Positions 34,589 to 54,388 of a DNA stretch of 64,000 nucleotides are shown here, one piece after another. A program made the position numbers and the translations under genes. Every line of letters starts with the position of its first letter. The first letter of the stretch is position 1. Location of the stretch: contig JANBVL010000001.1 in NCBI GenBank assembly GCA_024238995.1, positions 74,059 through 138,058 of the forward strand, in the 5' to 3' direction. The stretch is from Patescibacteria group bacterium. Its GTDB lineage: Bacteria > Patescibacteriota > Minisyncoccia > Minisyncoccales > JANBVM01. Under the pieces are notes generated by a model. It was not told the DNA's origin, ran no database searches, and saw nothing but the letters and a program-made list of their open reading frames with translations.

Positions 34589-36016
34589 CTAAATTCCTTT
34601 ATTTGATTCATTATTATTGAAAGGAGGTTTTTCACCTCTTAATTTTCTTGCTAATCTCTCTGCTTCTTCTACTTCTTTTCCTTCTTCAGGCTTTATTTTA
34701 CGGATTTTCTCCTCTAATTTCTTAACATCTTCAATCTCTTTTTCAGCTTGTTCTACTTCTTTGCGCAATCTTACTGACAAGTCTTTTCTTTGCTTACGCT
34801 GATATATTAAAATTCCCGAAACAATACCTATCAATAATATCATATAAGCTAACCACCAAGGAAAGAATAAATCCCTTATCCTTAATCCCTGACTATCGTA
34901 AAAAATAAAAGAATTAACAATATTTAAAGTTGTTTTAGCTTCAGTGGAATTTCCAGCTTTATCATATGTCATAACAATAATAGCGTATTTCCCTGCCCTC
35001 TCAAACGGAATTCTATAAGGTGAAACCACTTCTATGAAAAATGGATTGGCTTCACTTTTAGAATCAGAAAGATCAACTATGCTAACTTCATAATAATCAA
35101 TGCCAGAAAGCAAATCATCAGTAGAAAAATAAGCGAAGAATCTTGATCCAGTTACCCCGCCTATTGTTTCAATATCAATTTTAAATTCTTGAGGAGGGAT
35201 AGCATCAATATGCAAAGGATAATGAGTGGTTCCTCCAAAAACACCTCCTTTTTTTGCTTTTATATGAAAATACCAGATTCCATTTTTAACATCATTAAAA
35301 GTAACTGAATTCTCTTTACCTTCAGAAATATTGTCTGGGATTCCTTGAGGGTCTTGGTCTAAACTATAACTAAAATCAGTTACTCCTGGTTCTGTACTCC
35401 AAAAAAAACTTGGGTTATTGTTTTTATACCAAGTAGTAAGGCTGGGATGAGTGGGCGAAAAAAGCTTGGGTCCTTCAGGCGGAGAAAGTACTAAAGTATA
35501 GTTTCCAATAGCAGTGCTTTTAAGAATATTTGTGCCTTTTCCATCAGCCAGTAAAACCTTTGAAGAATCTGAAAATGAGATGGTAACTATTCCTGGAGCT
35601 TTGGCTCGAAAACTAATTGTTGACACCAAACCAGCTGAGGTTTTGATTCCAGGAGAAGGCACGCCTCCTTTAAAACTAATAATGCCTTGTTTATTTGAAT
35701 AAAACGGCTGGTCAGCCCAAACTGAAATAAAAGAAGAGCCAGCAGTTGGACTGGTAACTTGAAGAAGACCTGGTGAGAATTCTAAATCTACTTGAACAGC
35801 ATTAATACTGCTTCCTTCAGTATTTACAAAAACAGAAACATCAAAAGTAGTGCCAACAAAAAAAGTGCCCTGATAAGGAGAGAGATACAAAGAAGCACTT
35901 TCTCCTTCTGCTTTTGTTGGTTTGATTAAAAAAGCTCCTAATAGAAAGACCACGATAAACAAAGCTATAATCTTAATAAGCTTTCCTGTTTTTTCTAATA
36001 TAAAATTCTGCTTCAT
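34589..36016 (-). CDS. cohesin-like single-pass membrane protein, paralog 4
   Basis: ASLYLSPYQGTFFVGTTFDVSVFVNTEGSSINAVQVDLEFSPGLLQV..., then NGIWYFHIKAKKGG, TM AYMILLIGIVSGILIY, and a coiled-coil-like tail. Confidence 0.78.
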   Translation of the reverse strand: MKQNFILEKTGKLIKIIALFIVVFLLGAFLIKPTKAEGESASLYLSPYQGTFFVGTTFDVSVFVNTEGSSINAVQVDLEFSPGLLQVTSPTAGSSFISVWADQPFYSNKQGIISFKGGVPSPGIKTSAGLVSTISFRAKAPGIVTISFSDSSKVLLADGKGTNILKSTAIGNYTLVLSPPEGPKLFSPTHPSLTTWYKNNNPSFFWSTEPGVTDFSYSLDQDPQGIPDNISEGKENSVTFNDVKNGIWYFHIKAKKGGVFGGTTHYPLHIDAIPPQEFKIDIETIGGVTGSRFFAYFSTDDLLSGIDYYEVSIVDLSDSKSEANPFFIEVVSPYRIPFERAGKYAIIVMTYDKAGNSTEAKTTLNIVNSFIFYDSQGLRIRDLFFPWWLAYMILLIGIVSGILIYQRKQRKDLSVRLRKEVEQAEKEIEDVKKLEEKIRKIKPEEGKEVEEAERLARKLRGEKPPFNNNESNKGI

Positions 36017-37371
36017 TTTTCTTCTTGTGATGATTTTTCTTTTTCCTTTAATTTCTTTTCCAATTCTTGTTTTTTTTCTTCAAACTCTTCTGCAAATTCT
36101 TCTGTAGCTTCTTCTGTTTTTCTTTTTCTTTTTTCAATCTTTTTAATTTCAGACAAAGCTTCTTCAATTTCTTTTGTCGCTTTTTTAAATCCAAGCTTAC
36201 CTCTTCTCTTATAGGCCGCTACAACCAAATACCCAATCCCAAATCCAATTGCATAAATTAAACTCCGTGGAAGAAGAAAGTTTTTGAATTGAAGTCCTTT
36301 ACCTTCAATGTAAGAAAGAACTGGACTAATCAATCGAAAAGTAATTTGCTCCTGTCTTAAATTGCCTGATTTATCAAAAACCCTGACAATAATGTTATAT
36401 CTTCCAGATTTCTCATAAGGAATTTTATAAGGAGAAACAGCTTCAGTAAAAAAAGGCTGTGAAAGTTCAGGCTCTCTAAGATCTCTCAAACTAATTTCAT
36501 AATAGTCTATGCCTGAATAAATATCTTTGGTTTCAAAATAAATAAAGCGGGAATAAGTATCAATCTCTGGATTAAAACTTTGAGGCGGATTATTATCTAT
36601 CTTTATTATATAATGACTAGTCTTACCCCAAACTCCTGACTTTTTAGCCCTTAAGTGAAAATACCAGATGCCGTCTGCAACATCTGCATAAGATTTAAAG
36701 TTAATGTCTCCCTCAGATACTTCATCTGGCTCTTCTTGCGGATTTTGAGAAAGACTAAAGCTAAAATCAGTCATGCCATACTCCCTTATCCAATTAAAAG
36801 AAGGGTTATTATCCTGATACCAGACATCAAGATCTGGATGCGATGTCGATAAAAGCCTTGGTCCTTCTGAAGGTGGTACTGAAATCTGATAACTGCCTCC
36901 AATTAATATAGGAGAAATTGATGTGCCTTTCCCGTTATTAAGCAGAACTTTTGAAGAATCTAAAAATCCTATATTCGCTTTCCCAGGCATCTTGGCCCTG
37001 AAAGTAATGGTTGAAATCAATCCTGCAGAAGTAGTAATTCCTCCTGGCATTCCTCCTCTGAAAGAAATCTTTCCTGTGGCATTAGAATAAGTTGGAGGAG
37101 AAAGCCATTGAGAAACAAAAGATTCTCCACTGACTGGGCTAGTAACCTGAATTATGTCTGGAGGGAATGTTAAATCCACATCTACTGCATTAACCTCTTC
37201 GCCTTTAGTATTTATATATATAGATACATTAAAAGTGCTTCCCATGAAAAAAGTGCCGCTCTTGGGAGAAAGATATAAAGTGGCAGTGTCAGCTTTAACC
37301 ATTATGGGCACCATACCAATCATTGCTGATACAAAAGTAAATATTAATAAAGTAATAATGCTTTTTTTCAT
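36013..37371 (-). CDS. cohesin-like single-pass membrane protein, paralog 3
   Basis: ATLYLSPKSGTFFMGSTFNVSIYINTKGEEVNAVDVDLTFPPDIIQV..., then DGIWYFHLRAKKSG, a TM, and a Glu/Lys tail. Confidence 0.78.
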   Translation of the reverse strand: MKKSIITLLIFTFVSAMIGMVPIMVKADTATLYLSPKSGTFFMGSTFNVSIYINTKGEEVNAVDVDLTFPPDIIQVTSPVSGESFVSQWLSPPTYSNATGKISFRGGMPGGITTSAGLISTITFRAKMPGKANIGFLDSSKVLLNNGKGTSISPILIGGSYQISVPPSEGPRLLSTSHPDLDVWYQDNNPSFNWIREYGMTDFSFSLSQNPQEEPDEVSEGDINFKSYADVADGIWYFHLRAKKSGVWGKTSHYIIKIDNNPPQSFNPEIDTYSRFIYFETKDIYSGIDYYEISLRDLREPELSQPFFTEAVSPYKIPYEKSGRYNIIVRVFDKSGNLRQEQITFRLISPVLSYIEGKGLQFKNFLLPRSLIYAIGFGIGYLVVAAYKRRGKLGFKKATKEIEEALSEIKKIEKRKRKTEEATEEFAEEFEEKKQELEKKLKEKEKSSQEEK

Positions 37372-37386
37372 TCTTTAATTTGAGAG

Positions 37387-38634
37387 TTATGGATAACCTT
37401 TCTTAGTATATTTTTTCCGCAGCCACCATATTAAAACACCTGCTCCGCCTAATAAAACAAATGTTAAAAGCCAAACCAACCACCAGGAAAAAAGAGTTCC
37501 TCTGATTTCCAGACCACTGCCTTCAATATGAGTTATTAGAGGGGTCATCAACCTAAACCTGATTTCCTGTTCCCTTATATTCCCTGCTCTATCTACTGCT
37601 TTAATAATAACATTATATTTACCAGGTTTTTTGAAAGGAACTTTGTAAGGTGATGTTTCTTCTGTTAAAAATACCCGGGATGGTTCTGGCACACTTAAAT
37701 CAATCAAACCCACCTCATAATGGTCAATGCCTGAATAATCATCGCTAGTTTCAAAATAAATCAATGTCTGGTAGCTAACCAAACGATTATAGCTTTTAAC
37801 TTCAGGCTTAAATTCCTTTGGAGTATTAACATCTGCGCGAATCTGAACATGACTTGTTTGTCCCCAGACTCCTTGTTTTTTTTGCCTTAAATGAAAATAC
37901 CATATTCCATCAGAGACATCAGTAAAAGAAACCTGGCCTTCATTTCCTTCTGAAATGCCGTCTGGTCTTTTACTAGGATTTTGGTCGAAACTCCAAGAAA
38001 AATCAGTTACTCTGCTTTCTTTTTCCCAGGAAAAAGCTGGGCTTGAGTCTGAATACCAAACATTTGGATTAGGATGAGTTGGAGAAAAAACTTCAGGACC
38101 TTCTGGCGGAGGAATTAGAATCTGGTATTTTGCATTAATAGTGCTGGTTAAAATATCAGTTCCTTTGGCATCATTTAAAAGCACTTTTGATGATTCTGTA
38201 AATTCAATTCTAGCAGTTCCAGAAGTTACTGCTCTAAAAGTAATGGAAGAAACCAAACCAGCAGAAGTGCTGATGCCTCCTGGGATCCCTCCTTGAAAAC
38301 TAATAATTCCTCTTTCATTTGAGTAACTGGGAGGAGTAATCCATTCAGTAATCAAAGAAGTGCCAGCAGTAGGAGATGTAACTTGCAAGATGTTTGGAGG
38401 AAACTTCAATTCAGTTTGAACAACATTGATTTCATTACTTTCAGTATTAATAAAAATAGAAACACTAAAAGTACTGCCCACTAAAAAACTGCCTGACGAA
38501 GGAGAAAGATAAAGTTGAGCACTGTTTGATTGGACAGCTTGAGGAAATCCCAAAACCCAGGAGAGTAAAACACCAAACAACAATAATTTACTATTCACCT
38601 TCTTCATAATGGTTTCTTGAAGCAGACTCATCAT
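37387..38634 (-). CDS. cohesin-like single-pass membrane protein, paralog 2 (start probably MKKVNSK at 38607)
   Basis: AQLYLSPSSGSFLVGSTFSVSIFINTESNEINVVQTELKFPPNILQV..., then DGIWYFHLRQKKQG, and C-terminal TM WLLTFVLLGGAGVLIWW. Confidence 0.78.
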   Translation of the reverse strand: MMSLLQETIMKKVNSKLLLFGVLLSWVLGFPQAVQSNSAQLYLSPSSGSFLVGSTFSVSIFINTESNEINVVQTELKFPPNILQVTSPTAGTSLITEWITPPSYSNERGIISFQGGIPGGISTSAGLVSSITFRAVTSGTARIEFTESSKVLLNDAKGTDILTSTINAKYQILIPPPEGPEVFSPTHPNPNVWYSDSSPAFSWEKESRVTDFSWSFDQNPSKRPDGISEGNEGQVSFTDVSDGIWYFHLRQKKQGVWGQTSHVQIRADVNTPKEFKPEVKSYNRLVSYQTLIYFETSDDYSGIDHYEVGLIDLSVPEPSRVFLTEETSPYKVPFKKPGKYNVIIKAVDRAGNIREQEIRFRLMTPLITHIEGSGLEIRGTLFSWWLVWLLTFVLLGGAGVLIWWLRKKYTKKGYP

Positions 38635-39559
38635 GAAACAAGGCGGAATCTTTATGTTGTCTTTTCTTTTTTAACCATATCAGTCCTGCTCCAATGAGAA
38701 TGCTAAAAGTAATTATCCAATAAAACAAAGCTTTATTCTTTTTAATTACTGGAATATGTTCAGCAATATATTCATTACCTGCTTTGTCAATTGCTTTTAC
38801 CCTTATTGTATCATTTAATCCCTGGTCTTCCAGCAAATAGGGGCTGTCAGCTCTTTTCCATTCCCTTTCTCCTTCCTGAACTTCATAATGAGCAATACCT
38901 GTTTGTTTATCAGTAGTAGAAAATGTAATAAAATATTTACCTTCAAAAACACCAGGGCTCTGTTCAAGTATTATTAGGAATGATTCTGGAATAGTAACAT
39001 CACCTTTTAACAGCTCCTGCCACTCTTGTCTTGGAAACTCTGGTATTCCAGACAATATGCTTAAAAGCGCTCCATTTGTAATAAGAGAAGCTTTTGTGCC
39101 TAATCCATCATGAAGCAACACATAGGAATTTTCTGAGAATTCTATTTTGGTAGAAATTGGTTTATTTACTAATGGAGTTTGATATACCTGAAAGATCATT
39201 CTTCCAAGCAGATTACTTGTTCCAGGATCACCAGCTAACTCACCACAATATCCTCCTGGAATCCCGCCTGAAAAAGAAACTAAACCTGTTTCATTAGAAA
39301 ATTCTGGTTCCTTTGCCCAAAGAGAAAGCAATGAATTTCCTTGACTAAAATCTTTAATTTCTAAAACATTGCTGGCAAAACTTAATTCAACTTTCACTGT
39401 ATTAATACACTCTCCTTGTGTATCTATTTTTGCTTCTACTATAAAGGTGTCGCCTTGATAATATCCACTGCTGGACGGTTCTAGATATAAAATAGCTGCC
39501 CCACTTGATAAGGGGAAAAATAATAATAGTAGAAGTATGAATAATGAATTACGAGTCAT
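38591..39559 (-). CDS. cohesin-like single-pass membrane protein, paralog 1 (short, lacks the WYFH middle domain)
   Basis: AILYLEPSSSGYYQGDTFIVEAKIDTQGECINTVKVELSFASNVLEI...GLVSFSGGIPGG, with C-terminal TM FYWIITFSILIGAGLIW. Confidence 0.72.
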   Translation of the reverse strand: MTRNSLFILLLLLFFPLSSGAAILYLEPSSSGYYQGDTFIVEAKIDTQGECINTVKVELSFASNVLEIKDFSQGNSLLSLWAKEPEFSNETGLVSFSGGIPGGYCGELAGDPGTSNLLGRMIFQVYQTPLVNKPISTKIEFSENSYVLLHDGLGTKASLITNGALLSILSGIPEFPRQEWQELLKGDVTIPESFLIILEQSPGVFEGKYFITFSTTDKQTGIAHYEVQEGEREWKRADSPYLLEDQGLNDTIRVKAIDKAGNEYIAEHIPVIKKNKALFYWIITFSILIGAGLIWLKKKRQHKDSALFHDESASRNHYEEGE

Positions 39560-39591: not shown

Positions 39592-40677
39592 TTATCCTGT
39601 CCACCAATACATAAGTATTGAGAAATCAATTAAATCAACAATCCCATCTTTATTTTGGTCAACACAAGCGTCATATTTCCCCCACCAATAAAGCAGAATA
39701 GAAAAATCAACAAGACTGGTCCTTCCGTTTTTATTAAAATCAGCTCTAGGGCAAAATGCTGGCACTATTGCTTCACCAATTACAAATTCTAAAGCATGGG
39801 AAAAACTACTCACAAGCCCCTCAGGAGACAAAGCACTGGCTTTGATATAGTAAGAATCCTCGTCTAGTAAAGAGGTGTTAAAAGAAAAAGTGTAATCTCC
39901 TCTTTGGTCAGCTTTAACTTTATTTATAATAGTCTCTTGGGTATCCAAAGATTTAAGATAAAGACTTATTTCACTTTGAGGAGCAGTCTGGCCTGAAACA
40001 TGCAATAACTCTCCTTTTTCAAGCTGGTTTTTCTCTATCTTAATAGTAGGAGGAATAAGAATATCACCAATAACTACTGTCATGCCAAGAGAAATAGTTA
40101 CTGTAAGAGAAAAAGTAATGGATTTTCTTCCTGCCTTATCTTCAGCCCAAAGTCCAAAAGTATAAGTACCGCCTGTAAGACTATTAATCTCTATTTTAAA
40201 TGCAGCTAATGAATCAGCTCGTGCAGTAGCAATTATGTTTCCATCTTTTAATGTGAAAATTGAGGCATATGGGTAAGCTTTTCCCTGAAGAATAACTTTG
40301 GTCACTGGCTCTCTTGGATAAGGAAGTCCAGGTGGAGTTGGCGGAGGAGGCTCTATTAAACAAGTAGAACTACAACCATCGCCAGAATTAGCATTACTGT
40401 CATCACATTCCTCTCCTTCTCCGTCTTGAATAATCCCATCACCACAACGAGGACCTAAACCACTGCAATCATTTTTACAGAAACCGTATTCTCCGTTATT
40501 CACTCCATCATCACATTCTTCTTCTATTTCAAGAATATCATTTCCACATACCCCTAATATCTTAGCACTAATAGAAACTCCGCTCTGGGCTTGAACGGAG
40601 TCAAAGCTAAAAGCCAATATTAAAAGTACAGAACTAAGTATTGAAATAATTAAAAATAAATTTAGCCATTTTTTCAT
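39592..40677 (-). CDS. secreted Cys-rich-repeat protein with C-terminal dockerin
   Basis: Signal peptide, then CGNDILEIEEECDDG...CGDGIIQDGEGEECDD...GDGCSSTC (DUF4215-type Cys-rich repeats). A Pro-rich linker and an Ig-like middle follow. Dockerin repeats are ADFNKNGRTSLVDFSILLYWWG and DQNKDGIVDLIDFSILMYWW. Confidence 0.78.
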   Translation of the reverse strand: MKKWLNLFLIISILSSVLLILAFSFDSVQAQSGVSISAKILGVCGNDILEIEEECDDGVNNGEYGFCKNDCSGLGPRCGDGIIQDGEGEECDDSNANSGDGCSSTCLIEPPPPTPPGLPYPREPVTKVILQGKAYPYASIFTLKDGNIIATARADSLAAFKIEINSLTGGTYTFGLWAEDKAGRKSITFSLTVTISLGMTVVIGDILIPPTIKIEKNQLEKGELLHVSGQTAPQSEISLYLKSLDTQETIINKVKADQRGDYTFSFNTSLLDEDSYYIKASALSPEGLVSSFSHALEFVIGEAIVPAFCPRADFNKNGRTSLVDFSILLYWWGKYDACVDQNKDGIVDLIDFSILMYWWTG

Positions 40678-40703: not shown

Positions 40704-41768
40704 TTACTTTATGCCCATTGCTTTCTTCTTTTTTACTATTCTTTTTTTTGTTTTCGTTGTTTCTCTTCTTTTTATTTGCATCCCAGCTTTAGCTAATATC
40801 CATTTATTATACCACTTAATTACTTGAAAAATAATAAATAATATTATTATTGTAATTAAAGAATTTAATAGCATCAACCTCCAAGGAAGAATCCAAAAAC
40901 TTAAGCTGTCTTGAGCGCTTTTTTCCTCTTTCCCAAATTCTATATCTAAAATAGCACGATAATAACCAAATCCAAGGCTATTTTTCTCTTTTTTTAATTC
41001 TTCAAAAAATCCCTGCGCATCCGCTTTATCAATAGGATTTTCTGCATTTAACGTAATAGAAAATGCTCTTTCAGCTCCTGGCAATGCATAATATTTATTT
41101 GGGTTAGCTGAAAGAACAGATATTGCTTTGCCAAAAATATTTTTAATTGTTATTTTTCCTTCAGGTTTTAAATGTACAGTTCCATTGTTTTTTAATAGAT
41201 AACTAAAATCAATTGGCAAATAATTAAAAAATTCTTTATTGGTTTGAAAGTTTTTAATTTGTCCATCTTCAATTACTTCTCCTGAAACATTAAGCAAGAC
41301 CAATATTGCTATTCTACTGCTAATTCCAACACTGCCGTCACCAGATCCTTTTGGAGAAGAAGTTCCCCAAAAAATAGCTGCATAATTACCACCTGCATTT
41401 GCATTTTCAGGAATTCTAATAGTAAAAGAAGTTCTTATTCGTTCTTTCATCTTTAAATGCACTTCTGAAGGAGAAACTTCAATCCACGAAGCCAGTCCTG
41501 ATACTTCTCCAGTGAAAACTGGATCTCCCCAAGTCCCCTGCGTTTCAACACTCTCAAAAGAAGAATAAAAAGTTGAGTCACGGTTTCCACTATTAATTAA
41601 AGTAATTGTTCCAGAAATTACATCTCCTGGATCACCTGAAAATTCAACTTTTGCCGGAGAGACAGTTAAGGCGTAAGAGTTTGAAATAAAAATACTGCAA
41701 CCCAAAATAATAAAAACTATAAGAATAAGTGGTTTTTTCATTTCATTTAAATTAAATAGCCAAGTCAA
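40704..41768 (-). CDS. surface protein with two Ig-like (DUF916 / PapD-like) domains and C-terminal TM anchor
   Basis: Signal peptide, then LTVSPAKVEFSGDPGDVISGTITLINSGNRDSTF and SWIEVSPSEVHLKMKERIRTSFTIRIPENANAGGNYAAIF. The C-terminal TM is LMLLNSLITIIILFIIFQVI, followed by a Lys-rich tail. Confidence 0.6.
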   Translation of the reverse strand: MTWLFNLNEMKKPLILIVFIILGCSIFISNSYALTVSPAKVEFSGDPGDVISGTITLINSGNRDSTFYSSFESVETQGTWGDPVFTGEVSGLASWIEVSPSEVHLKMKERIRTSFTIRIPENANAGGNYAAIFWGTSSPKGSGDGSVGISSRIAILVLLNVSGEVIEDGQIKNFQTNKEFFNYLPIDFSYLLKNNGTVHLKPEGKITIKNIFGKAISVLSANPNKYYALPGAERAFSITLNAENPIDKADAQGFFEELKKEKNSLGFGYYRAILDIEFGKEEKSAQDSLSFWILPWRLMLLNSLITIIILFIIFQVIKWYNKWILAKAGMQIKRRETTKTKKRIVKKKKAMGIK

Positions 41769-41811
41769 TATAAAATTAACATGGAACTAAACAATTTCTT
41801 TAAAAATTGCC

Positions 41812-42429
41812 TTAAAGAGTATTAGAACAAGTGTAAGTAATTATATCTGAATAACTACCGGCTAGGTTTGCTCCACTAATTGCTGCTTGATAATACAAAA
41901 TAAGTCTTGCATCAACTACAGCACCTGTACTTGAAGCCACATTGACATCAGTAATTTCAAAACCACCAACATCACTAGTTGTTGATGCATTGTCATATCT
42001 GGCAGCTATTGTCATAGCAGTTCCAAAATCAGTACTTGTAGCCTGCAAACCATAACCCTCTGTTCCTGCTCCCAAACTAGATGTATTCCCAAAAGAACCA
42101 TCAGCTGAACCGATAAGATCAGGGCCACCAGCATAGTATAATCCTGGATCTGAAGTATCTCCATCGTCCTGAGCTTTAAGAACAGCAACAGCATTACTAT
42201 TAAGATTAACTGTAGTGCTACCGTAAGCAGTTGTCACTGAACCTGTAGTTAAAGTTCCAAAACTAGCAGTATTAGTGCTGAAATTACAACTAATACCTGA
42301 TCCCACTGTTGCTGAAATAGTAACATCATCACTCTTAGCCACATTTAAATTAGATGATAATGAAATAATTACAGCTAAACCCAATACCGCAATAATAAAT
42401 AAATCTTCTTTCTTAATTATCATTTTCAA
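41812..42429 (-). CDS. secreted pilin-like protein (205 aa) with SCPU/Csu-like sequence pattern
   Basis: Signal peptide, then ISCNFSTNTASFGTLTTGS...LAGSYSDIITYTCS. This is a Cys first strand plus FGTL and a terminal aGxYxDxitytC pattern. The whole mature part is homologous to the C-terminus of 42546-44354. Confidence 0.6.
   Translation of the reverse strand: MKMIIKKEDLFIIAVLGLAVIISLSSNLNVAKSDDVTISATVGSGISCNFSTNTASFGTLTTGSVTTAYGSTTVNLNSNAVAVLKAQDDGDTSDPGLYYAGGPDLIGSADGSFGNTSSLGAGTEGYGLQATSTDFGTAMTIAARYDNASTTSDVGGFEITDVNVASSTGAVVDARLILYYQAAISGANLAGSYSDIITYTCSNTL
41945..42015. repeat. 71-bp near-identical stretch shared by the two pilin-like genes, copy 1
   Basis: acatcagtaatttcaaaaccaccaacatca(c/t)tagttgttgatgcatt(g/a)tcatatctggcagctattgtcat has 2 mismatches versus 42679-42749. 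Confidence 0.9.
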
Positions 42430-42545
42430 TTTTACTTTACTTTAATTTTCTATTTTTAAATGAATCGAAAACGACCTTTTATTTTTTATACTATCTAATT
42501 AATTTATCATAATAAGTCAAATTTTGAAATTGTGGAAAACTTTTT

Positions 42546-44354
42546 TCATTCACTTACTGAACAAGTATAAGTAATTACGTCTGCATAACTACCCACTACA
42601 TTTGACACACTACTTGCTGCTTTATAATACAAAATAATCCGCCTGTTGGTTACAGCAGCAGTACTTGAAGCCATAGTCACATCAGTAATTTCAAAACCAC
42701 CAACATCATTAGTTGTTGATGCATTATCATATCTGGCAGCTATTGTCATTACAGCGCCACTTCCATAATCAGTACTTGTAGCTTGCAAACCATAACCTTC
42801 TATTCCTGCTATCAAACTAGCTGTATTCCCAGAAGCACTATCAGCTGAACCGATAAGATCAGTTGTAGCGCTGGACTTATATAGTCCTGGATTTCCAGTA
42901 TCTCCATCGTCCTGAACTTTAACAAAAACAGTACCACCACTTGTAATATCAATAGTAGTACTGCCATAAGCAGTTAAAACTGCACTTGATGTCAAAGTTC
43001 CAAAACTAGCAGTAGTAGTGCTGAAATTACAGGTTAAAGAAGGAGCTTCAGTAACTATTGCTGGATAACCATCAGCATTATAACCATCCAATAAAGTACT
43101 ATTAGATTTTATCATTCGAAAACAATAAGTGGTACTGCCTGGGGCATTGTTATTTTGAACCACCCAATCCCATTCTCCATCTTGGCCATTAGCAATAGCC
43201 AAAAGATTAGCTACCGAGGGATTAGCTTCTTCATAAGATTCTCTAACATTAGAACTGCTTAACAAAGTAGAAGTGGTAGTGGCCTCCTCATCTGTGCCTG
43301 TATTATCATAGCCTCGCCAGATGACTCCAGAAGCTAATCCTCCTACATCACTCCAGGAAGCAACAGCCGGACAACCAGTGGTTGAAGTGCCGTACTGAAG
43401 TTTAAAGGCCTGGGTAGAGGTAGTTAAATCAACTGTGCCAATTGTAATATTCATCCTTATTCGATAAACCGCACTTGAGGTAGCATTAGTAGAGGTAGTG
43501 TTTTCATTAGCCATTGCTCCCGCTGGTTGCACTGAATCTGCATTCCAATACCATCGTGAGTCATTTTGAGTAAAAGTAGGGGTAGGCACAGGATTAAGAC
43601 TAACTCCAGCTTCTATCCAGTCTACACCCAGTCCTAATGTCCATGCCATATCAGATTGAGCATCATTAGCAGTAACACTGCTTCCTGCTCCATCACAGTT
43701 ATTTGTACTATCGTTCCATTGCTGTGCTCCATCTCCGCTTTCGGTCAATGTTGTTGAATTTGCAGCAGATACTACATCATAAACTAAATCCCCTGAAGTA
43801 GTAGGAATTGGTATGTTTGCTGCTAGTCCACTTCCAAAATTACTATTCCAACCATCATCAGGAGTTGTAGTATCAATGCTTGAAAAAACTACTGCTGTAT
43901 GAACTGAACCATTCCAATTAGAATTGTTATCATCCCAAGTTATTGTAACTGTGGCAGATTTTTGAGTAGGTGAAATTTTTTTATAAATATGAACAGTAGC
44001 TTTACCATTCTGGGCTTCTCCTACTAAAGAAAGAGGTTCATTTGCTGTTGCAGCATCCCAGACAACCGAAGAAGCAAATTTACCAGTACTCTTTTGCATG
44101 GCTGAAATAAAAACATAAATAGCTGTCCCCGCTGTAGCATCTACGCTAGTAATTGTTGAAGAAAGGGACTTCTTATCAAAAGATGTAGTTGTGCTTTCAA
44201 CTGTAATTGCCGCCTGTGCTTTTTGAACTTCCGGCGGAAACGGTGGATTCTGCCAAATCCTCGGCTGACCAGAAAACAACCAACTTATCGTTAGCAAGAA
44301 AATAAGGCAAGTCAGTAAAAAATTCCCTAATTTATTCTTGACAAGTTTTGTCAT
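42546..44354 (-). CDS. large secreted/anchored protein (602 aa) ending in the same pilin-like module
   Basis: N-terminal hydrophobic segment NFLLTCLIFLLTISWLF and a Thr/Ser/Asn-rich beta region. The C-terminal approximately 160 aa (LTCNFSTTTASFGTLTSS...VGSYADVITYTCS) parallel 41812-42429. Confidence 0.65.
   Translation of the reverse strand: MTKLVKNKLGNFLLTCLIFLLTISWLFSGQPRIWQNPPFPPEVQKAQAAITVESTTTSFDKKSLSSTITSVDATAGTAIYVFISAMQKSTGKFASSVVWDAATANEPLSLVGEAQNGKATVHIYKKISPTQKSATVTITWDDNNSNWNGSVHTAVVFSSIDTTTPDDGWNSNFGSGLAANIPIPTTSGDLVYDVVSAANSTTLTESGDGAQQWNDSTNNCDGAGSSVTANDAQSDMAWTLGLGVDWIEAGVSLNPVPTPTFTQNDSRWYWNADSVQPAGAMANENTTSTNATSSAVYRIRMNITIGTVDLTTSTQAFKLQYGTSTTGCPAVASWSDVGGLASGVIWRGYDNTGTDEEATTTSTLLSSSNVRESYEEANPSVANLLAIANGQDGEWDWVVQNNNAPGSTTYCFRMIKSNSTLLDGYNADGYPAIVTEAPSLTCNFSTTTASFGTLTSSAVLTAYGSTTIDITSGGTVFVKVQDDGDTGNPGLYKSSATTDLIGSADSASGNTASLIAGIEGYGLQATSTDYGSGAVMTIAARYDNASTTNDVGGFEITDVTMASSTAAVTNRRIILYYKAASSVSNVVGSYADVITYTCSVSE
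42679..42749. repeat. 71-bp near-identical stretch, copy 2
   Basis: See 41945-42015. The flanking roughly 450 bp are also clearly similar by eye. Confidence 0.9.
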
Positions 44355-44556: not shown

Positions 44557-44781
44557 ATGACCCTTCGTCACATACCTTTAAATAAACAAAAAAAATACCT
44601 CAAAATAAAAGAGGTGGCAGAATTATTTGGAGTCACTCCTTTAACGCTTCGTAATTGGGATAAAGCAGGAAAATTAAAAGCTTATCGCCACCCCATAAAT
44701 AATTACCGCATTTACAAACCACAAGAAGTTGAGCTTTTTCTGCGAAAGATTGAATCAGGAAAAAAAACAATGCTTGGATAG
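44557..44781 (+). CDS. MerR/excisionase-family helix-turn-helix protein (74 aa)
   Basis: LKIKEVAELFGVTPLTLRNWDKAGKLKAYRHPINNYRIY is the typical HTH_17 / MerR-like N-terminal pattern. Confidence 0.75.
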   Translation: MTLRHIPLNKQKKYLKIKEVAELFGVTPLTLRNWDKAGKLKAYRHPINNYRIYKPQEVELFLRKIESGKKTMLG

Positions 44782-45061: not shown

Positions 45062-45745
45062 TTAAAGCAATTTGAACTTATTTATCACCAACCCAAACTT
45101 ATAGCCTAAGTGTTTTGCTGCTTTTCGGCAGTAAATCATTCTATCAGTAAAAATCTCAAAGTATTCCATTACAGGAACAAAATTAGTGTCAATTTTTAAA
45201 GTTAAGCTAATGTTTTTTACTTTTTTATTAATTCCAAGCTTTGAAAATTCAGTAGCATAATTAACCCTGTCATGAATATCAGTTTTAATGTCATTAACAT
45301 TATTGGAATTTACCCTTGAGCGACGAACATCTGATTTATCAGCTAAAATGACAACAGCTGAAACAGAGCTTGGTAACTCAATATCTTCGTGTTTAGGTAG
45401 AATATCTTCTTTATCATGAAAAGTAATTGCCTGCATAATTAAAGCCAGTTCTTCAGGTAAAAAATCATCTTTAAATACTTGGCTAAAAAGCATGGAACCA
45501 AGGTAATTATGATGGCTTCTGCTTAAAAAATTACCCATGTCATGACAAAAGCCAGCAATAGCTGATAGTTCCTGTTTTTGAGTTGAAAGACCTATTTCTT
45601 TTGCAATTGTTCTTGCCCTATCAGCCACTAAACTTGAATGCTCTAAACCATGTTCAGTATAACCTGATTTTTTTAAAACATTTTCAGTTTGTTTAATAAA
45701 TTCTAAAATGTATGGATTTTTTTTGACTTCAGTTAAAGTAATCAT
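45062..45745 (-). CDS. HD-domain phosphohydrolase
   Basis: LEHSSLVA...GFCHDMGN contains the H...HD metal-binding motif. Confidence 0.8.
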   Translation of the reverse strand: MITLTEVKKNPYILEFIKQTENVLKKSGYTEHGLEHSSLVADRARTIAKEIGLSTQKQELSAIAGFCHDMGNFLSRSHHNYLGSMLFSQVFKDDFLPEELALIMQAITFHDKEDILPKHEDIELPSSVSAVVILADKSDVRRSRVNSNNVNDIKTDIHDRVNYATEFSKLGINKKVKNISLTLKIDTNFVPVMEYFEIFTDRMIYCRKAAKHLGYKFGLVINKFKLL

Positions 45746-45972
45746 ATTCTCTTTAAAATTTCTAAATACTGCTTAGGATTAATCCCAAGAATTCTTAAGT
45801 TATTTCGGATAACAAAAATCGGTAGCTCTTTATCTCGAGGAACAACTACCGGTCTTTTTAAATCTTCTCGCCAATATATTCGGTGGTCTCCTTTTTCTCT
45901 TTTGAAATAACAACCTACAAATAAAAGAAATTTTTCAAACTTTTTATAATTGATGGGCGTCAAACGAGCCAT
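45742..45972 (-). CDS. hicA: HicA-family mRNA interferase toxin
   Basis: 76 aa. KGDHRIYWRED..RPVVVPRDKELPIFVIRNNLRILGI is a YcfA/HicA-like pattern. Confidence 0.78.
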   Translation of the reverse strand: MARLTPINYKKFEKFLLFVGCYFKREKGDHRIYWREDLKRPVVVPRDKELPIFVIRNNLRILGINPKQYLEILKRI

Positions 45973-45978
45973 ACTTTA

Positions 45979-46311
45979 TCATACTGAAACCTGAACAGTT
46001 TCAGATTCTTGAGAGATAATTATTGGCGGAACCCATTCTTTTTGGCTTTTTTTCCAACCCAATCCTTGCAGGACTTCTTCTAGTGTGCCTTTTTTAACAA
46101 GCTCTTCAAAAAAAATATTAACGATTTCTATAAATCGTTTTTTAGCTTCCTCATAGCTCTTGCCTGAAGTAGATAAATCAAGGGTTGGTGTATAGGCAAT
46201 AAATCTTTTACCCTCTCGAAGCATAGAAACTGAAAGTTTAAATTCTAGTTTAGTTTTTCTCATATTTTTTAATTCCGAAAGAATTAAGATTATGAGACGA
46301 TTTCGTCTCAT
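45979..46311 (-). CDS. hicB: HicB-like antitoxin (start likely MRKTKLEF at 46263)
   Basis: REGKRFIAYTPTLDLSTSGKSYEEAKKRFIEIVNIFFEEL has the HicB/UPF0150 N-domain pattern. It lies directly upstream of hicA. Confidence 0.68.
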   Translation of the reverse strand: MRRNRLIILILSELKNMRKTKLEFKLSVSMLREGKRFIAYTPTLDLSTSGKSYEEAKKRFIEIVNIFFEELVKKGTLEEVLQGLGWKKSQKEWVPPIIISQESETVQVSV

Positions 46312-46384
46312 GTTCTTATTATATTACGTTTAAAGCTTATGTCAATTTAAAAAATTTAAAACAATCATATTTTTATGCTTTTAA

Positions 46385-47668
46385 TTATTCTAACAAATCT
46401 TGCGTTGTTGTTGAAAGCGCTCCTCTTGTATAAAAGTTTTCTGGGCTCCAGATCATGAAACCAGAAAAATCATCTTTTAAAGCATCTTGAACTGCATTAA
46501 TTTCTAACCTCACTTCCTCTTCCCCATATTCAGCTCCTAAATCAAAATCCTGAAGCCATGGCCTTAACTTGGCTTGTGTTGAAGTGGTAGTTTTAAAAGC
46601 ATTAAGTTTAAACAAGCCAGCTTCCATTGCATTTTTAACTACCTCATAAGGATACTCAGCCGGATTGTCATATCCAATGTAACCTTGGGCATAATGAGAA
46701 GGATAAACCATTGGAGAAACAAAATCAAAATACTGATAAGCATGTTCAATTTTTTGACCAATTCCCAAATCAGATATTTCAGTAGAAAGTCCAAAAAGAT
46801 CAGCTGACAAAACAGCATTAGGAAGCTTTTCTCTTAAATAAGAATAAAAGCCTTTAATCACTGAAATTCTTGTAGTGCCGGTGCTATTCCATAAAGAAAA
46901 ACTTAAATCCCCTAAATCACCGTCAGAAGGAAAACGAATATAGTCAAAATTCAACTCATCAAAGCCCTGATTTAAAACATCTCTAGCAATAGCAATATTA
47001 TAATCCCATGCTTCTTCGCTTGATGGATCAATCCAGGCCAAACCCATCTTATCAAGCCAAAGCAAAGAGTCATCTGATTTCCTCTTCACTGCTAAATCAG
47101 GCCTTGACCAAGCTAGAATAGGATCCTGGAAAACACTAATTCTGGCAATAGTATAAATTCCATTTTTGTGAAATTTCTCAACTAAAGCTTTAACATCTGG
47201 AATTAAATATCTTTCAGCATTATATTCTTCAACCTCAGCAACCTCAGTATTATAGCTTACATAACCTGACCAGTCTTTGATATCAATCACAACAGCATTA
47301 ATCTCTGTGTTTTTAGCCAAATCAATCACATAATTAGTCATATAAGGACTAGCTGCTGACCAAGCAGTTAAATAAACTGCTTTTATTATTTCAGGCGCCT
47401 GAAAACCTGATTTTTCAATTTCGAGTTCAGTACTAGTAGCTGTTTTAGAAACAATTACAGAAAGAATTTCTTTTTCAGTAATCTCTTCTTCAACAATTTC
47501 TTGCTCTTCAACATGTTCTTCAGATTCATATTCTTGATATTCCTGCTGCTCTGGCAAAAAAACAGACTCATAAACATTAACAAAAGAATCTTTAAGAAAA
47601 AACAATACTATAAAAAACAAAAAAATTACAAAATACTGATTTTTAAGCAAGTCTTTAACGCTCTTCAT
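46385..47668 (-). CDS. putative glycoside hydrolase, DUF4015 (GHL) TIM-barrel family
   Basis: IKAVYLTAWSA...NAVVIDIKDWSGYVSY...IYTIARISVFQD...LAWIDPSSEEAWDYNIAIARDVLNQGFDELNFDYIRFP matches the DUF4015 pattern. An N-terminal TM anchor is present. Confidence 0.78.
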   Translation of the reverse strand: MKSVKDLLKNQYFVIFLFFIVLFFLKDSFVNVYESVFLPEQQEYQEYESEEHVEEQEIVEEEITEKEILSVIVSKTATSTELEIEKSGFQAPEIIKAVYLTAWSAASPYMTNYVIDLAKNTEINAVVIDIKDWSGYVSYNTEVAEVEEYNAERYLIPDVKALVEKFHKNGIYTIARISVFQDPILAWSRPDLAVKRKSDDSLLWLDKMGLAWIDPSSEEAWDYNIAIARDVLNQGFDELNFDYIRFPSDGDLGDLSFSLWNSTGTTRISVIKGFYSYLREKLPNAVLSADLFGLSTEISDLGIGQKIEHAYQYFDFVSPMVYPSHYAQGYIGYDNPAEYPYEVVKNAMEAGLFKLNAFKTTTSTQAKLRPWLQDFDLGAEYGEEEVRLEINAVQDALKDDFSGFMIWSPENFYTRGALSTTTQDLLE

Positions 47669-48026
47669 TTTTCAAGTTTTTGAATAAAAAAACAGCCTTT
47701 AATTATTAGGTTGTTTTTTAATATTCTAATTTTATTCCTAATTTGTCTGCAATTTGTTTTATCCATTTTTCATGACGATTCACTTTATATGATAAAATAA
47801 GCATTTCTTAAAAATAAGCATCAGCTCTTTTCGCATAAGCATCAACAGAAATTTGAAGCTCTGAAAAACTGTTTAACATTTCTTCTTTAAAAGACAAAAA
47901 ATCTTCTTTGGTGGCAAAGACTTCTTTATTAGCTTCAATTATTCTCTGTATATCTTTATCAGTAAGCATATTAATTTTCCTCTACTCATTTTTATTATAA
48001 CTTGTAAAGTAATCGTGTCAAACTTT

Positions 48027-48557
48027 TTACTTTTCAATTCCAAATTCCATTGATTTTTTAATTTGAATCATTTCTAAAGGATCAACATCTTTTAAAGAAT
48101 TGCCTTTAAACTCTTGAATCACTTTAATTCCTTCAATGTCAATATCAACACGGCTCCTTGAAGCTAATATTAAATTGGGTTCTCTTATTTCACCCTCAGC
48201 AGGGCCTTTAGTTATAAAGCATTTTCTTGCATCCATAATAATTAAGTCAGGATGAATTAATTTGTTTAACTCAGCTATTTTTTCCTGAAGATTTTTCAAA
48301 TGAAGCCTGACGCGCTCAATTGGCTTCATAAAACCAATAGATAATTTTAAAGCTCCGGTAAATTGAGCATATGAATGAGTTTTTAAATTAGGTAAAAGTA
48401 TCAACTTGTCAGCTCTTTCTAAAAATTCAGTTACTGAAACTGTCTTTAGAAATTTACCATTGGGAACTTGTTTTTTAATCCATTTCCTTTCATCAAAATT
48501 ATATATTCTTGGAGGTATTTCTATTTTCTCCAAATCAAAAACACCAAGCTTTTCCAT
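48027..48557 (-). pseudogene. DUF362 gene, C-terminal fragment (split by element insertion)
   Basis: LILLPNLKTHSYAQFTGALKLSIGFMKPIERVRLH is the DUF362 core. The apparent ATG abuts the recombinase stop (1-nt overlap). The N-terminal fragment is at 62660-62923. Confidence 0.8.
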
Positions 48558-50149
48558 TACTTTACGAGTATTGAGGCGTAGTCAAAGGTTGGTATAGGTA
48601 GCTTCATTAGTTCCTCTTTTCTCTTTGTTGAGAGCTTGGAAATTGAAATATAACCAGTTATCATTATCCTTCCTGTATCAGAATTGTAAGTGATTGTTTT
48701 TACAATACTCTTAAGCAGTTTTTTAATCTGTTCAGGCTTTAATATATTCAACTGAACTTTGGTCAGACTGGCAAACTCTTTTAAGCTGTTGATTATATCC
48801 TGCTTACTGGTTGCTTGAGATAACCTTACTTCAATCCCTTTTAAATCTTTCTTGATTTCCCTTTCAATCAAAGTATAGTTCTCTATCTTTGCCTCAAATT
48901 CTTCTATGCTTATAAAATCTTTATCCCAAAGTCGCCATACCTCACTCTTCTTTTTCTTTGTAATGGCTTGGTGCTTTAATAGGTCTTGTTTTAAATCACC
49001 TAACGATTGCTTTTCTTTGTCCCCTTCTTTTAACCGAAATATGTATTTGATAAGGATTTTAGGATTCTGTAATGCCTCTTTGATTTTGCCCCAGATATAA
49101 TCTTCAATAAACTCCTTCTTTATCATTCTAGAATTACATTTAAAAACCTCTGGAAAACTCTTGGGCTTTGAACTGCATACATAATAGGAATACTTATTAT
49201 GATGGCAGATACCAACCATTCTTGAGCCACACTTTTCACACCTCATTAAGCCACTCAAAAGATAAGTGTTCTTTGTTTTACCATAGAGCTTAAAATTCTT
49301 TTTTCTCAACTCCTGAACTTTATCAAATGTTTCTCTGTCAATTATGGCAGGGACTTTAACCATCAACCAATCTTTTCTGTTATTATTCACTTTGCTTGAT
49401 TTGACTTTTCTATTAAATTTCACTCTCTTGTTCTTTGGTTCAGAACTTTTGGTTTTATTGTAATACCAATTACCAATGTAGGTTTCACTCTTTAGAACTC
49501 TAGCAATTCCCTGTGGTCTCCAAATCTTATTATCCCCATAACGTATTTTTTTCAAGTGAAATGCTTTAGTTGTTCCAGTAATGGTTTGGTGTTCAAGATA
49601 AAGATTGAAGATAAGTTTTACAATCTTTGCTTCTTCAGGTTCTATCTTTAACTGCCAATCCCCCTTCTTGTTTTTAATGAACCTATAACCATAAGTTGCA
49701 CAACTCCTGATAAGCTTCCCATTTTTTACTTTGTGCAGTTTCCCTCTGCGACTTCTTTCTATGAATTGCCTTTTTTCGTGTTCAGCTAACAAGCTCTCAA
49801 TATCAGTTAAAAGTTTGTTTTCTTCTGTTAGCACTCGGTCTTTAAAGACCACTTCAATTCCTCGCTTCTCTAATTCTTTTAACACTATGAGTTGGTTAAG
49901 ATGGTCTCTGCTCAACCTATCGGCAGAATGAACATAAAGAGCTTCAAACAAACCTTCTTTAGCGTCATCTCTTAACTTGTCTAGAGAGGGTCTTGCCAAA
50001 GTTCCACCACTCCAACCATTATCAATATATTCTTTAACTATTTCAAAGTCTTTACAGATTTCCTTTAATACTGCCAACTGACTTTCAATAGTCCTTTCGT
50101 CTTTTTGTCTTTGGGTGCTAACCCTAACGTAGATTGCTACTTTTTTCAT
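48557..50149 (-). CDS. large serine recombinase (integrase)
   Basis: The resolvase catalytic N-terminus VAIYVRVSTQRQ carries the Ser nucleophile context. A recombinase domain, a zinc ribbon (CEKCGSRMVG...YYVCS) and a long coiled-coil C-terminus follow. Length is 530 aa. Confidence 0.92.
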   Translation of the reverse strand: MKKVAIYVRVSTQRQKDERTIESQLAVLKEICKDFEIVKEYIDNGWSGGTLARPSLDKLRDDAKEGLFEALYVHSADRLSRDHLNQLIVLKELEKRGIEVVFKDRVLTEENKLLTDIESLLAEHEKRQFIERSRRGKLHKVKNGKLIRSCATYGYRFIKNKKGDWQLKIEPEEAKIVKLIFNLYLEHQTITGTTKAFHLKKIRYGDNKIWRPQGIARVLKSETYIGNWYYNKTKSSEPKNKRVKFNRKVKSSKVNNNRKDWLMVKVPAIIDRETFDKVQELRKKNFKLYGKTKNTYLLSGLMRCEKCGSRMVGICHHNKYSYYVCSSKPKSFPEVFKCNSRMIKKEFIEDYIWGKIKEALQNPKILIKYIFRLKEGDKEKQSLGDLKQDLLKHQAITKKKKSEVWRLWDKDFISIEEFEAKIENYTLIEREIKKDLKGIEVRLSQATSKQDIINSLKEFASLTKVQLNILKPEQIKKLLKSIVKTITYNSDTGRIMITGYISISKLSTKRKEELMKLPIPTFDYASILVK

Positions 50150-53842: not shown

Positions 53843-54388
53843 ATGAAACTAAAACTTATAACAACAATTATTTTATTTTCATTGATAAGCTCTAGTGCTT
53901 CAAGCATTGGAATCTATCCTGTCGCTTTAAAGTTTGATGATGAGCTTTTAATGGGCAAACGATATAAAAATTCACAAATTACTATTATCAATACAAATGA
54001 TGAGGCAGGTTATTTTAAAGTCGGTGTAGCCAATTTAACAAAAGAGAATTTTGATAAGCTGAATTCTGATTGGATAAAAATTAAACCTGAAAAGTTCTAT
54101 CTAGAGGTAGGTTCTAGTCAAACGATTACTTTATCATTAAAAATTCCTCCCAAAACAAGATTGATATATTTTCAAGTTTATGGCGTTATAGAAACTTTTT
54201 CTGTTGAAGAAGTTGAATCAGGAGTTATGGGTGTGGGAGTTGCTGTGGGTTCTAAACTATCTTTTAAGGTTTCTAAAAAGAATGTCCCAAAATGGAAATT
54301 GCTCTGGTGGAACATTACAGACAGATTAAGATATTTTATGGCTTGGGGTGGTAATTTTATGCCTTTCAGTTTTACTCTTAAAAGATAA
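53843..54388 (+). CDS. secreted Ig-like (DUF916 / chaperone-like) protein (181 aa)
   Basis: Signal peptide, then IGIYPVALKFDDELLMGKRYKNSQITIINTNDEAGYF and WIKIKPEKFYLEVGSSQTITLSLKIPPKT. These parallel LTVSPAKVEF...ITLINSG and WIEVSPSEVHL...FTIRIPENA of 40704-41768. Confidence 0.55.
   Translation: MKLKLITTIILFSLISSSASSIGIYPVALKFDDELLMGKRYKNSQITIINTNDEAGYFKVGVANLTKENFDKLNSDWIKIKPEKFYLEVGSSQTITLSLKIPPKTRLIYFQVYGVIETFSVEEVESGVMGVGVAVGSKLSFKVSKKNVPKWKLLWWNITDRLRYFMAWGGNFMPFSFTLKR

Follow-up and report, generated by a model that had tools for sequence, protein, structure and literature searches.

A WxLIP-like anchor gene and its module-bearing neighbors in a conserved Patescibacteria cassette

Gene order and the WxLIP-like anchor

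We analyzed a 64,000-nucleotide (nt) stretch of contig JANBVL010000001.1 from the metagenome-assembled genome of a Patescibacteria group bacterium (the window; GC content, 33%), in which three open reading frames (ORFs) lie head to tail on the minus strand with gaps of 116 and 43 bp. The first two encode proteins that share a C-terminal module, and the third encodes a membrane-anchored protein related to the WxLIP proteins of the Gram-positive WxL/WxLIP display clusters. The large module gene (42546..44354) is a 602-codon ORF whose product is identical to an existing database protein and consists of an N-terminal signal/anchor sequence, an unannotated variable region of ~430 residues, and the module (residues 435 to 602, nt 42549-43052, delimited by BLASTP alignment to the small protein). 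The small module gene, KJI70_00610 (41812..42429), encodes 205 residues from a TTG start (203 in the NCBI call), namely, a signal peptide, the conserved N-terminal strand DVTISATV, and then the module alone (residues ~41 to 205, nt 41815-42309). The anchor gene, KJI70_00605 (40704..41768), encodes 354 residues from a TTG start (345 in the NCBI call), arranged as a signal peptide, immunoglobulin (Ig)-like domain 1 (residues 34 to 161), Ig-like domain 2 (residues 169 to 293), a transmembrane helix from ~296, and a Lys-rich cytoplasmic tail. A promoter and terminator scan of the cassette gave counts not above those of shuffled sequences and found no internal terminator between the three genes, an absence that is at most compatible with a single operon.

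Besides its signal peptide and the C-terminal hydrophobic helix with the Lys-rich tail, the anchor carries the strands LTVSPAKVEF and WIEVSPSEVHL. The AlphaFold model of the protein, with a predicted local distance difference test (pLDDT) value of 91.8, forms a beta-sandwich over each of the two Ig-like intervals and a helix at residues 296 to 353. Its top Foldseek matches are the Enterococcus faecium WxLIP chains 9i1y_A/B and 9i25_C ("WxLIP bound to long WxL"), with E values from 3e-12 (2.9e-12 for 9i1y_A) to 1e-11. The next matches are CsuC (E, 5e-10), CfaA, Caf1M, EcpB, FimC, and SafB (range, 1e-10 to 5e-8), and the same tier also holds CEP192 SPD-2, RbmA, and ciliary Ig-repeat proteins.

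At the sequence level, the window anchor has a weak fn3_5 match as its only Pfam match. Its 120 database relatives grade into carriers of PF06030 (WxLIP_PGBD, formerly DUF916), which is matched by 10 of 31 aligned members of the anchor family (best E, 2.6e-9), and the family profile finds EfmWxLIP1 in the PDB with an E value of 1.3e-6. By hhalign, the anchor family aligned with five Firmicute DUF916/DUF3324 WxLIPs at 97.2% (E, 3.3e-11; 253 columns; residues 33 to 310 against 49 to 334), a match that spans both Ig domains (PGBD and HBD) and the transmembrane helix, and with four actinobacterial DUF916 proteins at 99.7% (E, 1e-26). The overall architecture is also that of WxLIP, with a signal peptide, two tandem Ig-like sandwiches, and a C-terminal transmembrane segment within ~320 to 380 residues. 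Judged by these profiles and by the modeled fold, the 354-residue protein is a divergent WxLIP (DUF916-DUF3324-transmembrane) homolog. The original prediction, made from the DNA letters alone, had called the product of 40704-41768 PapD/DUF916-like and membrane anchored, and this label is right on both counts, because the profiles give WxLIP homology and the model matches solved WxLIP first and the chaperones of chaperone-usher systems next.

Two further features of domain 1 deserve attention. The loop at residues 141 to 150 has a pLDDT of 64 and is followed by the near-invariant hydrophobic last strand of the domain (L156, V161, and G163), and basic residues are conserved in the family at K40 in the first strand (K/R in 89%) and at R152 at the start of the last strand (K/R in 95%). 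We take this basic pair to recall R8 and K112 of PapD, which hold the pilin carboxylate, and treat the likeness as a lead only.

A C-terminal module conserved beside the anchor

The C termini of the small and large proteins are identical at 108 of 165 positions (65%; BLASTP E, 2e-66), beginning with (I/L)(S/T)CNFST.TASFGTLT and ending with GSY(S/A)D(I/V)ITYTCS, which bears out the common module and the boundary motifs first proposed for it. Neither the module nor the two proteins carrying it match any Pfam or NCBIfam family, and a PDB sequence search with the module profile returned nothing relevant. With a profile built from 30 members, the family comprises at least 1055 clusters (50% identity) at E ≤ 1e-3 and 494 at E ≤ 1e-10. 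Among the 150 matches listed, the module runs to the protein end in every one, in host proteins of 129 to 3576 residues, and in related loci its end coincides with the final residue of the protein in 110 of 112 ORFs. That residue is Phe or Tyr in 104 of the 110 module proteins, typically within T-A-N-F, giving the pattern T-[AG]-x-[FY]-COOH. The N-terminal regions of the large module proteins are diverse and mostly unannotated; the one in the window's large protein has counterparts at other loci in just a subset of the upstream "large" genes. The module is an unnamed domain family of ~165 residues that behaves as a C-terminal tag.

The AlphaFold model of the small protein (m67eb361861da; pLDDT, 90.5) is all beta. 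Its conserved first 10 residues (DVTISATVGS) were assigned no secondary structure, and no other internal block has a mean pLDDT as low as theirs (69). A Cys pair in the first and last strands, for which a check had been suggested, is present in a subfamily and co-varies almost perfectly (both Cys in 28 sequences, the first only in 0, the last only in 2, neither in 106), and the Cys-less members have Phe and a small residue in its place. The aromatic end and the Cys pair are mutually exclusive states, the subclade of the window combining the Cys pair with the ends CSNTL and CSVSE. The pair would fit a disulfide in the window's subfamily only.

To follow the gene pair across genomes, one genome per GTDB species was scanned with one anchor motif, which gave 168 confirmed relatives; the best 80 loci were fetched, and the 73 of them with at least 1.3 kb of upstream sequence served as the base for counting synteny. 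A module ORF ends within 400 bp upstream of the anchor on the same strand in 64 of the 73 loci by hmmsearch, and in the remaining 9 the upstream module was recovered by hhalign (97 to 99.9%), so that a module gene lies directly upstream of the WxLIP-like gene in 73/73 loci. The number of module genes before the anchor ranges from one to four; 41 of the 73 loci have a single one, and the window has two. The usual neighbor of the anchor (61 of 64 loci) is a protein of ~364 residues in which an N-terminal domain of ~190 residues precedes the module, and the module-only form of ~205 residues seen in the window is rare (3/64). Even at the distant locus L001, where the anchor reaches Pfam WxLIP_PGBD, the upstream gene still carries the module (hhalign, 92%). 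The cassette is conserved across Patescibacteria. At L001 (344-4426), L067, L070 (7839-12144), and L074, the WxLIP-like gene is present in two or three tandem copies, in some cases with module genes between them, which suggests cassette duplication.

Sixty-six of the 80 loci are labeled as Patescibacteria type, and the remainder are short contigs or otherwise labeled bins, probably mis-binned. For example, contig NJBH01000039.1 (L003), labeled "Promethearchaeota archaeon Loki_b32," has the same cassette at 74 to 77% identity to the window, and the cassette also occurs on the otherwise labeled contigs L005, L013, L014, L017, L023, L026, L065, L072, and L079. The odd labels on cassette contigs include Asgard archaeon, Rikenella, Bacillota, Polynucleobacter, Pirellulales, and "uncultured Gammaproteobacteria"; these contigs look like mis-binned or mislabeled Patescibacteria rather than transfers.

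The original prediction had missed that the conserved Patescibacteria cassette extends beyond the three genes, which form its 5' part. Directly after the anchor gene, also on the minus strand, lies a dockerin-like gene (39592..40677; 361 residues) with Cys-rich repeats, an Ig domain (Big_6), and a duplicated dockerin-like Ca-loop segment at the C terminus, ending in WWTG. Its Dockerin_1 score of 18.3 bits is below the cutoff of 22.9. The duplicated D.N.DG...DFSI segments are conserved in the displayed C termini of related loci (...DLNGDGKVNLIDFSI...WTG), and a strict regular expression applied to 65 dockerin-like C termini detected the Ca-loop motif twice in 16 and once in 34. Five tandem genes with an N-terminal cohesin-like domain follow on the minus strand (38591-39559, 37387-38634, 36013-37371, 34589-36016, and 33248-34552), and then a related sixth surface protein gene (31514-33247, minus strand) that has no Pfam cohesin match. 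Three of the five pass PF00963 (Cohesin) at 31.6, 28.0, and 26.1 bits against the cutoff of 24.1, the product of 38591-39559 has an OmpL47-type barrel match, and the four cohesin-like proteins inspected (34589-39559) have a C-terminal transmembrane segment.

This arrangement is common among the relatives. A homolog of 39592-40677 comes directly after the anchor in 62 of the 80 GTDB loci, starting mostly ~-90 to +30 bp from the anchor stop; in 52 of the 80, the dockerin-like gene is in turn followed by cohesin-like genes, most often two, and a C-terminal transmembrane-like segment is found in 82 of 120 cohesin-like ORFs of related loci. The close relatives L092 and L094 keep the whole gene order. 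Because the dockerin-like gene and the cohesin-like/transmembrane genes directly follow the anchor gene, the operon would pair two anchor/cargo sets, one of module and WxLIP-like anchor and the other of dockerin and cohesin. Compared with cellulosome-type cohesin-dockerin systems, the cassette is alike in its cohesin domains (three above the Pfam threshold) and in the duplicated dockerin-like Ca-loop C terminus downstream, but it has no glycoside hydrolase attached, its cohesin-like proteins are individually anchored by transmembrane segments, and the dockerin match is below threshold. The essential "dockerin" of Southlakia, SEML1_0315 (PMC10633639), was considered as a cassette homolog and set aside; it is a lone gene of 927 residues in an unrelated neighborhood.

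Candidate roles of the anchor-module pair

Among known systems, the Firmicute WxL/WxLIP clusters (Listeria lmo0549-0552, E. faecium locus A, and Lactiplantibacillus plantarum csc) share with the window an anchor that is homologous over both Ig domains and the transmembrane segment. The small/large pairing and the gene order of the window fit the published definition of a WxL cluster (PMC10599100). In the Listeria lmo0549 cluster (L088), a large WxL internalin, an LPXTG protein, a small WxL protein, and a DUF916/DUF3324 protein follow one another, and apart from the LPXTG gene the order of large, small, and anchor genes in the window is the same, in keeping with the Firmicute WxL/DUF916-like layout noted at the outset. 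The window differs from these clusters in that its partner domain is not WxL, it has neither an LPXTG gene nor a sortase, its host is a member of the Patescibacteria, the Patescibacteria partner is usually a two-domain protein of ~360 residues, and the cassette extends further, to dockerin-like and cohesin-like genes. Among named proteins, the nearest relatives of the anchor come from actinobacterial DUF916 loci (Clavibacter, Cellulosimicrobium, Streptomyces, and Arthrobacter plasmids), which likewise have a secreted protein of ~210 residues directly upstream. Unlike the module, those small proteins are WxL-like (VTDTR...W.V), with an hhalign match of 47% (E, 2e-4) to WxL and of 4%, over the last strand only, to the module of the candidate phyla radiation (CPR). 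On the Clavibacter and Cellulosimicrobium plasmids, the ~210-residue "hypothetical" proteins directly upstream of DUF916 genes (L083, 5245-5871; L084, 5064-5708) look like WxL relatives without the second Trp (...YSSTLTLTLFE) that PF13731 misses.

On the basis of this shared architecture, together with the WxLIP homology of the anchor, the strict synteny, the C-terminal position of the module, and the second anchoring pair downstream, we propose that the cassette is the core of a Patescibacteria counterpart to the Gram-positive WxL/WxLIP display cluster, in which the anchor non-covalently tethers module-tagged surface proteins, and we put this reading at a little better than even (roughly 55%). 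The two Ig-like domains of the anchor would lie outside the cell, held in the membrane by the C-terminal helix. The upstream proteins would be exported by the Sec pathway, and the beta-sandwich module would act as a tag captured non-covalently by the WxLIP-like protein. Capture would probably proceed by beta-strand complementation involving the conserved last strand of domain 1 (residues 148 to 165), which comes after the low-confidence loop, and K40 and R152 could hold the free C terminus of the module. That loop, the conserved K40 and R152, the free module C terminus with its Phe or Tyr in 104 of 110 proteins, and the conserved N-terminal strand without assigned structure in the monomer model would all fit capture of this kind. 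The variable N-terminal region of the large protein would be exposed on the cell surface, plausibly for adhesion, and the module-only small protein may be an accessory or competing partner, like the small WxL proteins in Firmicutes. The results show the homology and fold of the anchor, the strict adjacency of the genes, and the place of the module at the C terminus; the physical binding of anchor and module, its geometry, and the adhesive role are inferred.

Several results weigh against this proposal. The window anchor itself has no match to PF06030 even at E ≤ 1 and so does not reach the Pfam threshold. The conserved N-terminal motif NQIDKxxxYFDLK of the PGBD of Firmicute WxLIPs (PMC10599100) is absent from the anchor family, whose consensus at that site is ALTVSPxxxExxGDPG; hhalign aligns the site to Listeria YFDL, the motif not being kept. 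On the partner side, PF13731 (WxL) matches at E ≤ 1 neither any of the 30 module sequences nor either window protein, the module of the small protein has no Trp, and the family consensus has no Trp-x-Leu motif at the corresponding places. Genuine WxL loci were taken from annotated plasmids to make a 10-sequence WxL alignment, which finds the PDB chain 9i25_A ("WxL domain surface protein") with an E value of 1.7e-11; against this alignment, the module reached 0.25% by hhalign with 30 module sequences and ~1% with 136, aligning just the last one or two strands (G-x-Y-x-x-T-hydrophobic-T). When the module profile was aligned by hhalign with single sequences, namely, the actinobacterial small proteins and Listeria WxL, nothing past the last strand matched. 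The best 50 of 609 Foldseek matches of the module model do not include the solved WxL chain 9i25_A, although the entry 9i25 is in the library. The partner domain could therefore be unrelated to WxL, and binding may take place in another way. Moreover, the two module proteins of the window lack the usual aromatic terminus and end in ...CSNTL and ...CSVSE instead.

Because PF13731 does not match, Trp is missing, and hhalign stays at or below ~1%, the module does not appear to be a WxL domain; by sequence the tag is either different or diverged beyond recognition, in a system that would work like a WxL cluster. This agrees with the "different ligand module" of the original prediction, the partner being WxL by none of the tests run. 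Like WxL, the module is always C-terminal, in domain-only small proteins as well as in multidomain large ones. A paper on "signal-strapping" (PMC12537917) was set aside, as DUF916 figures in it just as a neighbor and entry 9i25 does not come from it.

The module also resembles pilins. The best Foldseek matches of its model are TLP-1a/b (E, 0.03; probability, 0.97; template modeling [TM] score, 0.47 to 0.48), which form donor-strand-exchange fibrils from pond water (PMC11494351), and CsuA/B is matched weakly (6fq0_B; E, 0.039; probability, 0.85; TM score, 0.39/0.47). Further matches are the donor-strand subunits PsaA, FimF/A, DraD, DaaE, and CanA. In sequence, PF05229 (SCPU) is matched weakly by 6 of 30 module members (best E, 0.0044), all below threshold, the best score of 17.5 bits not reaching the gathering cutoff of 22.4; these matches are collinear with the model, covering positions 4 to 136 of 138 in member P0044 and 4 to 73 in member P0056. 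The suggested SCPU/Csu-pilin resemblance is thus weakly supported, by the collinear sub-threshold matches and the CsuA/B probability of 0.85. Archaic Csu pili (CsuC with CsuA/B) resemble the window system in these two weak matches of the module, as well as in the similarity of the anchor model to CsuC, in the subfamily's Cys pair in the first and last strands, and in the basic residues conserved in both the first and the last strand of anchor domain 1. Unlike them, the window system has no usher and no outer membrane, its chaperone-like protein is membrane anchored rather than soluble, and the SCPU cutoff is not reached. The usher-free donor-strand fibers (TLP-1, TasA, and CanA) are alike in having a secreted beta-sandwich with an N-terminal strand outside the core, TLP-1a/b being the best structural match of the module, but the similarity is weak and without a sequence relationship, and TLP-1, TasA, and CanA have no WxLIP-like partner.

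These likenesses allow the cassette to be read as an usher-independent donor-strand-exchange fiber, in which the module proteins are pilin-like and each uses its N-terminal strand (DVTVSATV) to complete the fold of the following subunit, with the large protein as the tip adhesin and the anchor as a PapD-like chaperone, assembly platform, or base anchor. Such a fiber is favored by the Foldseek matches of the module, the best of which all belong to donor-strand-exchange subunits, by SCPU matches that, weak as they are, are collinear over the whole domain, by the similarity of the anchor model to CsuC, Caf1M, CfaA, FimC, and SafB (E, 1e-10 to 5e-8), and by a module N-terminal strand that is conserved and yet forms the lowest-confidence internal block without assigned structure. 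However, all structural matches of the module are weak (E ≥ 0.03; TM score ≤ 0.48), and the anchor is closer to WxLIP, a 1:1 binder according to the title of PDB entry 9i25, than to any chaperone. In addition, 61 of 64 anchor neighbors have an N-terminal domain before the module and 41 of 73 loci have a single module gene; because most loci have a two-domain module protein, often alone, a free N-terminal donor strand is not general. We therefore consider a fiber of this kind unlikely. Its fuller form, a donor-strand-complemented fiber or adhesin stalk in monoderm Patescibacteria whose Csu/SCPU-like subunits are chaperoned and rooted, without an usher, by a membrane-anchored PapD-like WxLIP homolog, seems to us decidedly improbable. 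If true, the fiber cassette would be an evolutionary bridge from Gram-positive WxL/WxLIP display to Gram-negative chaperone-usher pili, and together with the linked cohesin-dockerin genes it would form a phylum-wide apparatus for host-cell attachment.

The module may instead bind the cell wall itself, through peptidoglycan or an S-layer, with the WxLIP-like protein stabilizing or organizing it or with both acting independently in a surface-protein island. The constant C-terminal position of the module is that of many wall-binding tags, and there is a precedent in WxL domains, which are reported to bind peptidoglycan, WxLIP having been proposed to stabilize them (PMC10599100). Against this stands the finding that the module has no similarity to known wall-binding domains in Pfam, NCBIfam, or the PDB, and adjacency in 73/73 loci argues for a specific partnership of module and anchor over independence. 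Wall binding by the module is accordingly quite doubtful to us, and non-covalent tethering by a WxLIP-like anchor remains the reading that we prefer.

A life in attachment to other microbes is assumed for Patescibacteria, and few of their surface structures are understood besides type IV pili. The cassette is a concrete candidate for surface display and host contact: it lies unannotated in at least 168 species-representative genomes and can be read by analogy with the solved WxL-WxLIP complex (PDB 9i25). More than 91% of WxL sequences come from Firmicutes (PMC9772566). The WxLIP anchor family extends past Firmicutes to Actinobacteria and Patescibacteria, each with a different or very diverged C-terminal tag, and the chaperone-usher match of the anchor together with the weak Csu-pilin match of the tag raises the question whether chaperone-usher pili and WxL-type display have a common origin. 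The anchor belongs to a known family, and the tag domain and the extended cassette are undescribed; a literature search of incomplete coverage, by which novelty is not proven, found no description of WxL/DUF916 or cohesin-dockerin cassettes in Patescibacteria/CPR. Given the size of the module family (1055 clusters at the 50% identity level), a profile for it is worth having and would allow the surface proteins with this domain to be annotated.

The 71-nt tract and the flanking genes

Within the module-coding DNA, 41945..42015 of the small gene, which encodes MTIAARYDNASTT(S/N)DVGGFEITDV on the minus strand, pairs with 42679..42749 of the large gene (minus strand) with exactly 2 mismatches (69/71 nt identical), just as originally described. 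From this stretch, the original prediction had concluded that the module was recently homogenized by gene conversion or duplicated recently inside otherwise diverged genes. The latter phrase is overstated, as the module-coding regions of the two genes are 77% identical over their full length. Shuffling of codon columns seldom yields a run of this length (P = 0.001), a result that reveals clustering of conserved columns and does not show conversion. The tract (a 24-residue motif) is the most conserved motif of the clade. Its identity is 69/72 within the window (W), 68/72 between the long gene of W and the short gene of L003, 66/72 between the short genes of both, and 64 to 66/72 for other cross-genome pairs. 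Where the amino acids agree, the same codon is used at 20 of 22 positions in the tract versus 68 of 86 in the rest of the module (Fisher P = 0.17), and a strong T3/A3 codon bias (third-position GC content [GC3], 0.10 to 0.21) keeps synonymous identity high everywhere. Since the tract is equally conserved between genomes and its synonymous identity is not above that of the rest of the module, it does not appear to be a conversion footprint.

The age of the duplication was judged from short/long pairs in four genomes, namely, W, L003, L092/L093, and L094. Module identity is 67 to 82% between short copies, 63 to 76% between long copies, and 52 to 68% between short and long copies; codon positions 1 and 2 group by paralog type (77% support for the short clade), whereas position 3 groups by genome lineage (99 to 100%). 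Because orthologs are closer than paralogs and positions 1 and 2 group by paralog type, the duplication is old and predates the four related genomes. The synonymous divergence (dS) of the paralogs is 0.33 in W, 0.33 to 0.39 within the genomes of W, L003, and L093, and 0.65 within L094, the most distant genome, to which ortholog dS is 0.74 to 1.27. The ratio of nonsynonymous to synonymous divergence of the module is high among close relatives (0.4 to 1.0).

Recent conversion that homogenized the two module copies and left the tract as its footprint would account for the 69/71 identity of a run seldom seen under shuffling, for a window paralog dS (0.33) below the ortholog dS to L094, and for third positions that follow lineage where positions 1 and 2 follow paralog type. 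It is very unlikely, given that the identical-codon fraction inside the tract does not differ significantly from that outside, that the same tract is kept at 68/72 and 66/72 across W and L003, and that orthologs are closer than paralogs over the whole module. Cross-genome paralog dS (0.35 to 0.46) is about that within genomes (0.33 to 0.39) in the W/L003/L093 clade, and any homogenization therefore predates this clade. The grouping of third positions and a paralog dS below the ortholog dS to L094 may hint at older concerted evolution, a signal confounded by the base composition of L094, whose higher GC3 (0.24 to 0.30 versus 0.10 to 0.21) could alone pull third positions together and mimic it.

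The cassette is flanked on one side by the cohesin-like genes and on the other by MerR/HTH_17, HD-domain, HicA/HicB, DUF4015, DUF362, and serine recombinase genes. No usher or sortase is encoded between 31.5 and 50.1 kb of the window, as had been stated for the vicinity of the cassette. The divergent MerR/HTH_17 gene (44557..44781, plus strand; MerR match E, 1e-12) encodes a 74-residue protein that may be a local regulator. Small helix-turn-helix (HTH) genes like this one were found only at L001 (4783-4983), L002, and L070, so the association is not conserved across the family. A parallel to the L. plantarum WxL regulator RwpL was dropped, as RwpL is of the MarR type, the neighbor in the window is MerR/HTH_17, and the latter is not conserved across loci. 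The region 45742-50149 (minus strand), which adjoins the cassette on its upstream side, contains a HicA toxin gene, a HicB-like partner, a DUF362 fragment-like ORF, and a large serine recombinase gene, a set that suggests the edge of a mobile or rearranged region.

Two other ORFs of the window were recorded. About 10 kb from the cassette, a 181-residue ORF (53843-54388, plus strand) weakly matches domain 1 of the WxLIP-like profile (E, 5.7e-6), has weak ASH/Cep192-type Ig matches, and may be a lone anchor-type Ig domain. At the other end of the window, 1031-7198 on the minus strand is an ORF of 2055 residues.

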